A stretch of DNA of 64,000 nt, taken from Escherichia phage phiWec179. Below are positions 25,639-64,000 of the stretch, in pieces (within the stretch, counting starts at the first letter, position 1; each line of letters starts with the position of its first letter). The DNA is taken from the sequence record LC739533.1; one strand, given 5' to 3'. The notes under the pieces are model-generated. The model was not told the DNA's origin. It made no database searches and saw only the letters and a list, made by a program, of their open reading frames with translations. Position numbers and translations under genes: made by a program.

Positions 25639-26133
25639 ATGTTTCAAGTAGAAATTCATGTGCACAACAGTTGTTCAAATTGCGAAACTTGTGGTTACAA
25701 TAGTTCAACCATGATCACTGTTAGCGGAGACTTAGGACATGCCAAGTTTGGCGAAGTCGCAAGCTGCTTCAGCGGAGAGGATGCAGATTGGCATGATATT
25801 GCTTTGTGGCTATGCGGAAGACTGAATGTAAATTGTAAAGACTTCCCTGAACTGTTGAGCCGAAATCTTATTGATAGTCGGGAACAAGCCTACAATATTT
25901 ATGCCGCTTCTGTTTATGTTGATCATAAATGGGTAGAAGATGAAGAAGCTGAACGTTTGCTGCGCCTCTACTACGAAGCAGAGGAAGCTTATGATAACTA
26001 TTATAGCATGTCCAACATTCTACGCTTGTTTGCAGAGTTTGATATTTACTTTGAAGTGAGTTATTCTGAAGAGGAAGTGTATGATTTTGATGACGATGAT
26101 TACGAGGAGGATGAAGAATGCCAAGACGATTAA
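25639..26133 (+). CDS. hypothetical protein with highly acidic C-terminus
   Basis: Start at ATG 25639 (RBS gggagg); CxxC pair near N-terminus. Confidence 0.5.
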   Translation: MFQVEIHVHNSCSNCETCGYNSSTMITVSGDLGHAKFGEVASCFSGEDADWHDIALWLCGRLNVNCKDFPELLSRNLIDSREQAYNIYAASVYVDHKWVEDEEAERLLRLYYEAEEAYDNYYSMSNILRLFAEFDIYFEVSYSEEEVYDFDDDDYEEDEECQDD

Positions 26134-26918
26134 TAGTGATCAGCGGTGCTGGTCTAAGCGCCGATAGCGGTGTACGTACTTTCCGCACTGATACAGATAG
26201 CGGGAAAGCTTTGTGGGATGAATACGACCTTTCTGAAGTGTGCGATATTTTCAATTTCCGTGCTGGCTACCAGCAAGAACAATGTGTTCCTGGCGCTGCT
26301 GGTGGATTAGATGCAGAGGGATACAACCTCTACCGTAAAACTCACGACTTCTACAATAAACGTCGCGTAGAGATGGATAGTGTGTCTCCTAACGCTGCGC
26401 ATTACCAGATCGCAGAGTGGTTCCAAGAGTACGGCTGCGATCGTGTTATCAACATCACAACAAACGTAGATGATCTTCTGGAACAAGCAGGGGTTGTTCA
26501 TGAAGATGTTCTGCATGTTCACGGCTTCCTGCCTGAAGTGATTGTAGACAATAGAATCATCAAGGATGTTGGTTATGCTGCTATTGATGTAGATGATTAC
26601 AAGTATGTGAAGCCCAATGTAGTGTTCTTTGGGGAGACTGCCCCACTGTATAACGATATGTACCACATCTTAGACGGCTTGACGGCTCAAGATATGGTGG
26701 TTGTAGTGGGCTGCTCTAATCAAGTGATCAACTTCAACTGGGATTTGTTCCCAGCCCTCAACATAGGAACAAAGATGGTCGTAGTTAATCCTGGGGTTAA
26801 TTACGAAGAAACACTTCTCTATGAAGATCGTGGAGTTTTTGTTTACCGAGAAAAAGCTGCAACAGCCTTCAGTAATGAAGGTTTCATTAAAATGATCGAA
26901 GACCACTTAAACAAATAA
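26118..26918 (+). CDS. Sir2-like (sirtuin family) NAD-dependent protein
   Basis: GAGLSADSGVRTFR, catalytic HG, KPNVVFFGE, VVVGCSNQV sirtuin blocks; no Zn-binding Cys tetrad seen. Confidence 0.75.
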   Translation: MPRRLIVISGAGLSADSGVRTFRTDTDSGKALWDEYDLSEVCDIFNFRAGYQQEQCVPGAAGGLDAEGYNLYRKTHDFYNKRRVEMDSVSPNAAHYQIAEWFQEYGCDRVINITTNVDDLLEQAGVVHEDVLHVHGFLPEVIVDNRIIKDVGYAAIDVDDYKYVKPNVVFFGETAPLYNDMYHILDGLTAQDMVVVVGCSNQVINFNWDLFPALNIGTKMVVVNPGVNYEETLLYEDRGVFVYREKAATAFSNEGFIKMIEDHLNK

Positions 26919-61357: not shown

Positions 61358-61555
61358 TTATTCAAGCCCTACGATATGTAAGACACGGCGATTAGCAATA
61401 GCGTGCTGGTCTTCTGTTATAACGCCCATTTCTACCAGTGAATCAAGAAAGGAAAGCACCGTGATATATTCGTCATCGGGTACACTCATTTCATTAGTAC
61501 CGTTTACCACTACGTTGATTTGTCCTGCTTTCGCTACAATGTGCAATGTTGCCAT
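61358..61555 (-). CDS. hypothetical protein
   Basis: 65-aa ORF, first gene of the array. Confidence 0.5.
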   Translation of the reverse strand: MATLHIVAKAGQINVVVNGTNEMSVPDDEYITVLSFLDSLVEMGVITEDQHAIANRRVLHIVGLE

Positions 61556-61829
61556 GATCTTAACTCCAGGTGATGAATGATGTTTTTTGTTGGTTGACGG
61601 TGGATTATGGAGATCCTCACCTTTGCCCGTCCTGCATTGCGCCCTCCTGTTGTTTATTGTCGTTGTGCCTCGCCCCCCTCGACAAGATTAATACTACGCT
61701 ACCAGGTGCGGAACGTCAACGACTTTTTCAATCTTTTTTATTTTCTTTTTGCTTGCTATATATAAAGGAAAGGGCTATCATCTTTCTACCGCGCCAACCA
61801 GGGCGCACAACAGAAGAAAGGGCGACACC

Positions 61830-62096
61830 ATGACAACTACTACATTACACCTTATGCACTCGTTAGGCTGGCAAGGCGGCACGGTCCACCAGGTAGCAAG
61901 CGCAACGGGCTTAAAGGTTGAAACAGTTCTCAACCTGGGCGATCATAAAGTGGAAGAGATAGACCATTTTGATCCGTTCGCTGATGGTTATCTCTGGGCT
62001 TGCAGTGGCGGCGGGGAAAGCAAGATACCGCCAGCCGCGCGGGGCGATATGCATTTTTGGTTAGGTGTTCTCTCCTGGCAAGAAAACAAAAAATAA
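61830..62096 (+). CDS. hypothetical protein (isolated rightward gene)
   Basis: Start at ATG 61830; leader has GCGCC-aaccag-GGCGC hairpin followed by ACAACAGAAGAAAGGG, mirroring the minus-strand cassettes. Confidence 0.5.
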   Translation: MTTTTLHLMHSLGWQGGTVHQVASATGLKVETVLNLGDHKVEEIDHFDPFADGYLWACSGGGESKIPPAARGDMHFWLGVLSWQENKK

Positions 62097-62098
62097 TC

Positions 62099-62133
62099 TT
62101 GACAAGCCCAGGGATCGGGCTTATACTGTTTTA
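62099..62133 (+). promoter_or_regulatory. orphan sigma70-type promoter TTGACA-17-TATACT
   Basis: Consensus -35 at 62099-62104, 17-nt spacer holding an AGCCC/GGGCT inverted repeat, -10 TATACT; no downstream ORF of 60 aa or more. Confidence 0.5.
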
Positions 62134-62140
62134 CATACAG

Positions 62141-62240
62141 AAGAGGAAGCGCCACCCCACGGCGTAAAGGCGGGGCTAACATACCAGGGGCACTGGTTGG
62201 AAGGTCGATCGCCGGGAGGCTGGGCGCTATATATTTGTAA
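62141..62240 (+). ncRNA. candidate small structured RNA downstream of orphan promoter
   Basis: GC-rich, self-complementary stretches after the promoter; no credible ORF; ends uncertain. Confidence 0.25.
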
Positions 62241-62351
62241 AGAAATGTAAAGATAAAATAATCGCTTGCTTTCCTGGCTGGATCTGTTATTCTTATTACA
62301 TGGCGAGGGGACACGGGAGCGCGAGACAATCACCGGACCTGCCCGTCATTC

Positions 62352-62378
62352 TGCAAATGAGAAAAATTCTCATTTGCA
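62352..62378. promoter_or_regulatory. perfect 27-bp palindrome, operator-like
   Basis: tgcaaatgagaa aaa ttctcatttgca, 12-bp arms. Confidence 0.5.
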
Positions 62379-62405
62379 AATAAGACTCATTCGCATTTAA
62401 TAATT

Positions 62406-62438
62406 GAATGAGAATCATTCTCATTCTCATTCGTATTT
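62406..62438. promoter_or_regulatory. perfect 21-bp palindrome plus right copy of about 31-bp direct repeat
   Basis: gaatgagaat c attctcattc (62406-62426); 62407-62438 is 28/32 identical to 47871-47902. Confidence 0.5.
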
Positions 62439-62448
62439 CGATTTTAAG

Positions 62449-62463
62449 TGAGAATAATTCTCA
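62449..62463. promoter_or_regulatory. perfect 15-bp palindrome, operator-like
   Basis: tgagaat a attctca; third site sharing the TGAGAA(T) half-site. Confidence 0.45.
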
Positions 62464-62477
62464 TTTCGGTAATTTTC

Positions 62478-62540
62478 ACGTAAACTTTAGAATTTGCTTT
62501 TCAACTTTCACTTTTGTAAAAGCAAAAAAACTTTAAATAC
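62478..62540. repeat. direct repeat copy 1 (about 62 bp)
   Basis: acgtaaactttagaattt..tcacttttgtaaa..aaactttaaata. Confidence 0.5.
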
Positions 62541-62616
62541 CTGGTGCGCGCGACTTTTTAAAAAATTTTTCTCGGTTTTTTGCTTTGAAATCTGGCCCAC
62601 CAATTTGAGATAGTGT

Positions 62617-62680
62617 ACGTAAACTTTAGAATTTGGTTTTGGATTCTCACTTTTGTAAACTCGTAAAAAGTTTAAATAAT
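62617..62680. repeat. direct repeat copy 2 (about 62 bp)
   Basis: acgtaaactttagaattt..tcacttttgtaaa..aaagtttaaata; identical 18-nt and 13-nt blocks with copy 1. Confidence 0.5.
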
Positions 62681-62808
62681 TGTAGGGATTTTGAGATAGT
62701 TTGCTTGTAAGGTTTGAGATAATCCTTCCCGAAGATGTTACGCAGCCTACAGCCTACCTGAATGCTCGTCTAACGAGATTAACTCTAAAAGATGAGTGTT
62801 GGTGTAGC

Positions 62809-62845
62809 TAAAGAGAAAAGGCTCTCTACGGTGTTGTAGGAGCCT
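62809..62845 (-). terminator. rho-independent terminator for NADAR gene
   Basis: GGCTCCTAC/GTAGAGAGCC hairpin (one bulge) with T-rich tract on minus strand. Confidence 0.5.
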
Positions 62846-62916
62846 TATTTCTGTGGCACAAAGTTGACGTATTCTTTTTAAAAACGAATTTTTTCAAAAT
62901 ATCACGAATATCGCCT

Positions 62917-63444
62917 TTATGGTATTTTGGCTGGGAACAGGATTTTAATCAGATTGTTGTGGTATTGTCCTAAAAGATTCTGCCCTTTCCAGTTGGCAGG
63001 ATTAAGCACCCCTGGTTCGTACATACCCATTCCAATTCCGTAAACCTTATCATAAGGACTCGCCTCAACGAACGTTTTGAATTGGTACAGTCGCAAGTCA
63101 GAATAAAGATCAGGGTTCTGTGTATACTTCAAGCATAAGCCTCGCATTACGATACGCTCTCGGTACTCTTCCCACATGTCATTATTAAAACCAGACACCG
63201 CTCGACCCATGCGCTTGTAGTATGCCTGTCCCTTCTCGTCGTCACGCTTCATTGAGTGATCAAGGATAGCTGCTGCGATTACCTGATCCTTGAACAGCAA
63301 AGCCTTACGCCACATCATGTATTGCTCTACACAACAGAAAGTTTCATTGTACCCTGGTTCCGTCTCTGTGAATGGTGCAATGTACCAATTGCTAAACACA
63401 TCTTTATGTGAAAAGAAGAATACATATTCATTAGTTATTCGCAT
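62917..63444 (-). CDS. NADAR-family (YbiA-like) protein, candidate ADP-ribosyl hydrolase
   Basis: FFFSHKDVFSNWY, CVEQYMMWRKALLF, KYTQNPDL, VEASPYDKVYGIGMG, KGQNLLGQ follow NADAR/DUF1768 blocks; RBS aagagg. Confidence 0.7.
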   Translation of the reverse strand: MRITNEYVFFFSHKDVFSNWYIAPFTETEPGYNETFCCVEQYMMWRKALLFKDQVIAAAILDHSMKRDDEKGQAYYKRMGRAVSGFNNDMWEEYRERIVMRGLCLKYTQNPDLYSDLRLYQFKTFVEASPYDKVYGIGMGMYEPGVLNPANWKGQNLLGQYHNNLIKILFPAKIP

Positions 63445-63619
63445 TTTTCATGCCTCTTAAGACTTCAGCTTGCCCGTCTTGAAAAGCTTTCATCAGAACT
63501 ATCTTAAGATTGACTTCCAAGCGTTCTTCATCCTCTTTATAACAATCCAACACTGCCTTAAGTTCATCATAGTGGTTCAGAATAGGTTTAAAGATTTCAT
63601 GATCTGCTAAACGTGCCAT
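63431..63619 (-). CDS. hypothetical protein
   Basis: Start at ATG 63619 (RBS aaggag). Confidence 0.45.
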   Translation of the reverse strand: MARLADHEIFKPILNHYDELKAVLDCYKEDEERLEVNLKIVLMKAFQDGQAEVLRGMKNANN

Positions 63620-63632
63620 AGTTTCTCCTTTG

Positions 63633-63998
63633 TTAGTCCATCCACCAGTAGCCATAAACTGCGTCTGCGTCGATGAGTTTGTGTTTGTTGTTCCGCATGT
63701 AGTCTAAGATAAGTAGACGTTTATTGTATCTGGAGAGATTATGACCCTCTTTTCCGCCATAGTCAAAATATTTTGCAAGACTTTTACACTCAAACAAAAT
63801 CAGTTCGGGAGTTTCTTCACATTGGTCTGTCTGGTACACTTGACGGATGATCATGTATACGTCATCGTCTTCCGCTAAGTGCTCTACTGGTCCACACCCA
63901 GCAGGAATAAATTCATAGTCCCATCGAATCAGATGTTTCTCTACTGCTTCAAAGAAATCCATTTTTTCGCTACGCATGATCTGAACATCAATTAACAT
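63633..63998 (-). CDS. hypothetical protein (start near window edge)
   Basis: 121-aa ORF; true start may lie at internal Met or beyond the window. Confidence 0.45.
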   Translation of the reverse strand: MLIDVQIMRSEKMDFFEAVEKHLIRWDYEFIPAGCGPVEHLAEDDDVYMIIRQVYQTDQCEETPELILFECKSLAKYFDYGGKEGHNLSRYNKRLLILDYMRNNKHKLIDADAVYGYWWMD

Positions 63999-64000
63999 AA

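Follow-up and report, generated by a model that had tools for sequence, protein, structure and literature searches.

Family, fold and active site

Escherichia phage phiWec179 (sequence record LC739533.1) carries, near the right end of the 64,000-nucleotide (nt) stretch of DNA analysed in this work (the window), a gene of the NADAR family, and the question raised by this locus is what such a gene does for a phage. The answer favoured here, with a probability of about 0.7, is that it encodes a stand-alone NADAR ADP-ribosyl glycohydrolase, a counter-defence factor of the orphan-antitoxin AdfN type directed against DarTG1. The gene is as follows:

62917-63444, minus strand: NADAR-family gene, 175 amino acids (aa), BDU12427.1 in phage phiWec181; the coordinates are exactly those of one open reading frame (ORF)

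GenBank describes BDU12427.1 as a “hypothetical protein” only, and its PHROG assignment (PHROG 1017) is to “unknown function”. Membership of the NADAR family, claimed in the first-pass annotation together with the Pfam search that would verify it, was borne out by the profile hidden Markov model (HMM), by the predicted fold and by the catalytic residues. Pfam NADAR (PF08719) matched the protein with E=1.2e-33 and 117.1 bits (cut-off 35.1) over profile positions 3-154 of 163; Pfam gave NADAR alone, the protein being composed of a single domain. The AlphaFold2 model (87 homologues) had a predicted local distance difference test (pLDDT) of 96.5 and a predicted template modelling score (pTM) of 0.90, and showed the alpha+beta fold of NADAR proteins. 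Foldseek against the PDB gave only two significant matches: 8BAU, the Phytophthora nicotianae NADAR (PnNADAR) with ADP-ribose (template modelling score 0.81), and 2B3W, the Escherichia coli YbiA, the predicted fold being nearer to PnNADAR than to YbiA. Sequence searches of the PDB, even at E<=10, returned nothing beyond 8BAU; YbiA and a DarG1-type structure surfaced in fold searches only.

The residues contacting ADP-ribose have been described as E43, K50 and E125 in the Phytophthora NADAR, and as E88, K95 and D171 in the DarG1 of E. coli C7 (Schuller et al. 2023, PMC11543638); the first-helix catalytic pair of T4 gp30.3 is E36/K43 (PMC11825919). E40, K47 and E127 of the phage protein aligned with the catalytic positions of PnNADAR (HMMER alignment) and were invariant across the 87-sequence alignment. 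The protein therefore has a Glu in the first helix and a Lys seven residues on. Its third catalytic residue is a Glu, which it shares with the generic NADAR and YbiA types, whereas DarG1 has an Asp and T4 gp30.3 a His here. The predicted catalytic triad E40/K47/E127 is intact.

Orthology to AdfN-Bas60

Phage orphan NADARs were named “AdfN” by Johannesman et al. 2025 (PMC11825919). Besides T4 gp30.3, these authors assayed a divergent NADAR common to the BASEL phages Bas60-62, which are phi92-like phages, now Justusliebigvirus, of the same subfamily (Stephanstirmvirinae) as the window's phage. AdfN-Bas60 neutralised DarT1 in uninfected cells with no need for other phage factors, and allowed three unrelated phages (RB69, T5 and Bas25) to plate on DarTG1 hosts again; T5 was not rescued on a DarTG2 host (PMC11825919). 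DarT1 neutralisation or plating rescue has been shown for the Bas60, Bas32 and T4 proteins only.

AdfN-Bas60 was identified here by scanning the Bas60 genome with tblastn and two profile HMMs. The sole NADAR found in 150,000 of the 150,425 nt of Bas60 (Escherichia phage PaulScherrer) was bas60_0111 (QXV83846.1), annotated as “putative YbiA-like N-glycosidase”, and the profile HMMs found a single NADAR in the window. These two proteins were reciprocal best hits, with 57% identity over 172 aa. The locus was also collinear between Bas60 and phiWec181 (LC739534.1; Phapecoctavirus, Stephanstirmvirinae), which is 100% identical to the window across the 2.5 kb queried. The order of the genes, with the identity between phiWec181 and Bas60, was:

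AAA ATPase: 67%
CapR-domain protein: 38%
NADAR: 57%
Opposite-strand 88-aa gene, beyond about 800 nt of non-coding DNA: 95%
Small-gene array: 35-89%

Reciprocal best hits and collinear neighbours make the window gene the positional orthologue of the experimentally characterised anti-DarTG1 factor AdfN-Bas60. The clade-specific insertions are common to both proteins, as are the catalytic E/K/E residues and the VEASPYD motif; AdfN-Bas60, like the window protein, is encoded by an orphan gene without adjacent toxin, the only NADAR of its genome. Besides the identity of only 57%, the two differ in that the N-terminal hairpin insert is shorter in the window protein, and the phiWec181 locus has two extra small ORFs upstream of NADAR. 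Literature searches found no mention of a Phapecoctavirus NADAR, and the second BASEL paper names neither DarTG nor NADAR; the experimentally defined AdfN-Bas60 lineage is now extended to this sister genus.

Expected activity and range of targets

During infection of E. coli carrying DarTG1, DarT1 would move ADP-ribose from NAD+ to the N2 of guanines in the phage DNA and replication would be blocked. The phage NADAR would bind ADP-ribose, with K47 at the diphosphate and E40 and E127 at the distal ribose, and would hydrolyse the N-glycosidic bond between ADP-ribose and guanine, leaving unmodified DNA on which replication could resume. The lesion, and not the toxin, would be the target, and the enzyme should therefore counter any guanine-specific DNA ADP-ribosyltransferase (ART), but not the thymine modification made by DarT2. 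All the NADAR families tested hydrolyse ADP-ribosylated guanine (G-ADPr; PMC11125620 and other studies). The 57% identity to AdfN-Bas60 suggests that the window protein acts against DarT1 in vivo, and we infer that expression from host-type promoters would be sufficiently early. The evidence brought to bear on this assignment comprises family, fold, catalytic triad, purifying selection, orthology, synteny, operon position, ribosome-binding site and terminator.

The counter-defence role against DarT-type DNA ADP-ribosylation proposed in the first-pass annotation was supported for DarT1 by the orthology to AdfN-Bas60, but not for “DarT-type” toxins in general, AdfN-Bas60 having failed to rescue T5 on DarTG2 (PMC11825919). 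Among the DarT toxins, the target would be limited to DarT1 (guanine N2), and the modification made by DarT2 (thymine) would not be reversed. As far as sequence comparison goes, the anti-DarTG1 role is supported by orthology and would involve no new mechanism, this being a known kind of factor and unsurprising after 2025. Its consequence is that a “hypothetical protein” receives a specific, testable counter-defence annotation across a genus of broad-host-range coliphages, some of which have already served in experimental phage therapy (e.g. 536_P1). The annotation predicts resistance of Phapecoctavirus to DarTG1, not necessarily to DarTG2, and bears on phage host range.

Several points weigh against the anti-DarTG1 role or limit it. 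Identity to the tested protein, AdfN-Bas60, is only 57%; the evidence for AdfN-Bas60 comes from ectopic expression, no deletion of the Bas60 gene being reported in the available sections (PMC11825919); the protein also exceeds the cut-off of the NCBIfam model TIGR02464 (see below); and YbiA and T4 gp30.3, active in vitro, fail on their own to rescue cells from DarT1 (PMC11125620), so that the NADAR fold does not automatically give rescue in vivo.

The fold and Glu127 group the window protein with the generic NADAR and YbiA types, which also remove ADP-ribose from cytosine (C-ADPr) and work on RNA as well as DNA, unlike DarG1 and the T4 type. The protein might accordingly be a broad nucleic-acid de-ADP-ribosylase, erasing G-ADPr and C-ADPr placed on DNA and/or RNA by other toxins (pierisin/ScARP-like, YarT-like or undescribed defence ARTs), with the anti-DarT1 activity as one facet, an idea also raised in the discussion of PMC11825919. 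The top PADLOC match points the same way, being not DarG but PDC-M42C (E=3.4e-35), which belongs to an uncharacterised “phage defence candidate” system. However, no further defence ART of this kind is known in E. coli, and DarTG1 is the sole system against which an in-vivo effect of the orthologue has been reported (PMC11825919). We regard such breadth as unlikely, and it would extend the DarT1 explanation, not replace it. A related proposal, put forward because the enzyme is of the generic NADAR type (Glu127) and not of the DarG1 or T4 type, is that of a toxin-agnostic eraser wider in range than AdfN-T4 (cytosine and guanine, RNA and DNA), which might guard the Stephanstirmvirinae against undescribed ADP-ribosylating defences in addition to DarTG1; this, too, is unlikely. 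As a separate observation, the PDC-M42C match implies that candidate defence operons harbour bacterial relatives of this NADAR clade.

Comparison with other NADAR proteins

The anti-DarTG1 role has also to be weighed against a function in metabolism. The score of the protein against TIGR02464, “riboflavin biosynthesis intermediates N-glycosidase”, was 109.7 bits (cut-off 73.7; this is an “equivalog_domain” model, which in practice spans the broad NADAR domain), and related phage genes are labelled “GTP cyclohydrolase II”, “N-glycosidase” or “YbiA-like”. Both facts favour a metabolic N-glycosidase, acting in the manner of YbiA on reactive intermediates of the riboflavin pathway, or on soluble metabolites or signals derived from ADP-ribose, with no role on DNA. 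Soluble ADP-ribose derivatives were argued to be the main targets of phage NADARs by Iyer et al. 2022, and the Caballeronia chromosomal homologue (the nearest chromosomal one examined) lies among housekeeping genes with no adjoining ART. Against this, identity to E. coli YbiA was 28% over 82 aligned residues (BLASTP) and 27% in the multiple alignment, the fold is nearer to PnNADAR, riboflavin genes were absent from the operon and from the window genes examined, YbiA itself hydrolyses G-ADPr (PMC11125620), and the orthologue has an anti-DarT1 phenotype at the DNA level (PMC11825919). Despite the “GTP cyclohydrolase II” label of related genes, NADAR is the only Pfam family matched by the protein itself. 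A purely metabolic function is thus quite improbable. On several NADAR orthologues that label is a misannotation, which comes from COG3236 (“uncharacterized domain / GTP cyclohydrolase II”) and from the JGI name “ribA/ribD-fused uncharacterized protein”.

E. coli YbiA (PDB 2B3W; TIGR02464) is the product of a housekeeping, SOS-linked chromosomal gene. The context of a YbiA-type gene was not found for the window protein, which is single-domain, has no rib genes nearby, shows low identity to YbiA and is structurally nearer to PnNADAR. PnNADAR itself (PDB 8BAU; generic “NADAR” family, Schuller et al. 2023) comes from a eukaryotic cell, in which its physiological role is unknown, and is not a phage counter-defence factor. 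DarG1, the antitoxin associated with DarT1 (E. coli C7; G. lovleyi, 8BAT), belongs to the same superfamily and has the same predicted chemistry, hydrolysis of guanine-N2-ADP-ribose; the window gene has no ART in its operon or flanks, and neither the N-terminal extension nor the Asp at the third position (D171 in C7) of DarG1 was found in its product. The annotation of O157:H7 Sakai shows no gene around rpsU-dnaG-rpoD that would correspond to the “sigma70-linked” E. coli NADAR of PMC11125620.

AdfN-T4 (gp30.3) resembles the window gene in being a phage-encoded orphan NADAR with the first-helix Glu and Lys conserved, and it counters DarTG1 by removal of G-ADPr (PMC11825919). The two proteins differ in sequence (15% identity in the alignment), in having LKHSIAS (T4) or VEASPYD (window) at the equivalent position, and in the His that T4 has in place of Glu127; phmmer with gp30.3 gave no match in the window. 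Full activity of AdfN-T4 also depends on a Tevenvirinae context, a dependence not seen for the Bas60-type enzyme (PMC11825919). By sequence, the window protein is placed outside the T4-type (gp30.3) group of phage NADARs, and the T4-type and Bas60-type enzymes were acquired independently.

Transcription unit and gene neighbourhood

The signals and ORFs associated with the NADAR gene were:

63453-63458, minus strand: Shine-Dalgarno sequence AAGAGG, 8 nt 5' of the NADAR ATG, read from the sequence
63431-63998, minus strand: two small upstream ORFs in the same operon as NADAR, 74 aa (63431-63655) and 121 aa (63633-63998)
62808-62846, minus strand: intrinsic terminator of the NADAR unit, a hairpin (62818-62846) of nine G/C-rich pairs with one bulge, followed by UUUUCUCUUU

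The operon that NADAR ends is conserved in both Phapecoctavirus and Justusliebigvirus. The 74-aa ORF overlaps the start of NADAR by 14 nt, and the gene is therefore co-transcribed with it and possibly translationally coupled. The 74-aa and 121-aa ORFs are annotated as coding sequences in LC739534.1; they had no Pfam match and no tblastn match at the Bas60 locus, and are considered as context of NADAR only. The terminator hairpin lies 71 nt past the NADAR stop codon and is also conserved in Mt1B1_P17. The RNA fold of 62800-62870 (minus strand) had -20.6 kcal/mol (z = -5.46, none of 200 shuffles equally stable). A simple terminator scan missed this hairpin because its T-run is interrupted. Read on the plus strand, this hairpin has TTATTTCT after it, and the terminator may be bidirectional. 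A sigma70-like promoter (11/12) was found in the gap 5' of the ATPase gene, beyond the window; the generic promoter and terminator scans, taken as a whole, were not significant.

An anti-defence locus had been read into the position of NADAR beside the operator-rich non-coding region and the small-gene array, an argument that proved weak: NADAR closes a conserved operon and is not part of a variable island, and in Cronobacter phage CR9 about 51 kb separate the NADAR homologue from the corresponding non-coding region. Lying next to the repeat-rich region is therefore a poor guide to function.

ART, DarT and riboflavin genes were found neither in the NADAR operon nor among those window genes that were examined. 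The genes around NADAR code for a CapR-domain protein, an AAA ATPase, a Phage_tudor protein and products without family match, none of them an ART, and NADAR is therefore an orphan. The genomic context of two of the nearest homologues outside Stephanstirmvirinae had no toxin link either: one is the Caballeronia gene mentioned above, and the other is on a 328-kb contig in which almost all genes are without Pfam match.

A further explanation would make NADAR the eraser partner of a writer encoded by the phage, reversing or limiting ADP-ribosylation by the phage's own NAD-consuming enzymes. A candidate exists in the window, a SIR2-family (sirtuin) gene at 26118-26918 on the plus strand (Pfam PF02146, E=1e-19); Bas60 also encodes a macrodomain protein, NAMPT and a phosphoribosyl pyrophosphate synthetase, outside the equivalent region, and ADP-ribose-processing domains co-occur in large phages (Iyer et al. 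2022). The sirtuin gene is, however, about 36 kb away in a separate transcription unit, and no ART adjoins NADAR. Sirtuin partners, moreover, are typically macrodomains. The orphan orthologue is active without any phage factor (PMC11825919), and a partnership of this kind is highly improbable.

Just past the right end of the window (L001 8489-10682, phiWec181), the operon also includes the AAA ATPase gene and a gene whose product has three CapR-homology domains. This product is labelled “endonuclease” in related genomes, and the ATPase “FtsH-like protease” in Bas60. Upstream, in divergent orientation, there is a second CapR-domain gene.

Conservation and distribution

The ratio of nonsynonymous to synonymous substitution rates (dN/dS) between the window NADAR and its Mt1B1_P17 orthologue (86% aa identity) was 0.06, and the gene is under strong purifying selection. 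Synonymous divergence between phiWec181 and Mt1B1_P17 was about 1.6 in NADAR, but about 0.24 in the flanking 121-aa ORF and 88-aa gene. This difference points to exchange of the NADAR allele by recombination and to a mosaic locus.

Homologues of NADAR were found by tblastn in 718 phage records, 711 of which span at least 80% of the protein. Identity was at least 80% in 70 records and about 56-57% in the phi92-like phage group; the remaining matches listed, with about 31-44% identity, belong to large phages, many of them myoviruses, whose hosts include Staphylococcus, Listeria, Enterococcus, Bacillus, Klebsiella, Cronobacter and others. A concentration of NADARs in large myoviruses was also the outcome of the survey by Iyer et al. 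2022.

Phage-database matches to positions 61500-64000 of the window included records labelled as Pseudomonas phage PsgM04F (97.4% identity), Acinetobacter phage ABPW7 (87%) and several “Campylobacter phages”, all close relatives of this E. coli Phapecoctavirus; the host labels may be unreliable.

Non-coding region left of the NADAR gene

The region between NADAR and the small-gene array contains the following features:

61830-62096, plus strand: lone 88-aa gene without family match, 95% identical between phiWec181 and Bas60
62099-62127, plus strand: near-consensus sigma70 promoter TTGACA-17-TATACT, from the promoter scan
62097-62230 (core about 62131-62222), plus strand: conserved non-coding element of about 90 nt behind this promoter, almost invariant across two subfamilies
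62235-62262, plus strand: second promoter-like site, TTGTAA-16-AATAAT, from the promoter scan
Within 62235-62355, plus strand: second conserved non-coding module of about 60 nt, ATGGCGAGGGGACACGGGAGCGCGAGACAA..CACCGG..CCTGCCCGTCATTCTGC, after the second promoter-like site
62355-62466: repeat region with four copies of a 21-nt palindrome, AAATGAGAAnnATTCTCATTT
62478-62539 and 62617-62678: two copies of a 62-nt direct repeat, 84% identical, after the palindromes

Positions 62097-62355 were nearly invariant between Phapecoctavirus and Justusliebigvirus, and single-base indels in this region exclude coding. Sequence related to 62097-62360 was present in 317 phage records, from Stephanstirmvirinae and several Vequintavirinae genera. 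Rfam, tRNA and tmRNA searches gave no match for the element of about 90 nt. A three-helix model was 96.6% paired in 20 distinct sequences, compared with at most 46% when the partners were slid; one pair covaried perfectly (GC in 11 sequences and AU in 9), most other pairs being invariant and hence uninformative either way. The z-score of single-sequence folding (minimum free energy) was only -0.9. This element may be an undescribed phage small RNA or a conserved DNA-level element.

The module of about 60 nt was also recognisable in rV5-type Vequintavirus, and its variants, judged by eye, had a compensatory or pseudoknot-like look. The 21-nt palindrome motif recurred, in variable copy number, in all the related phages aligned. 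The palindromes and direct repeats look like operators, iterons or AT-rich hairpins, and could also belong to a replication origin. Finally, the conservation of the 88-aa gene between genera (95%) was unusually strong for a small phage protein of unknown function, compared with 57% for NADAR and 35-89% for the other neighbours.
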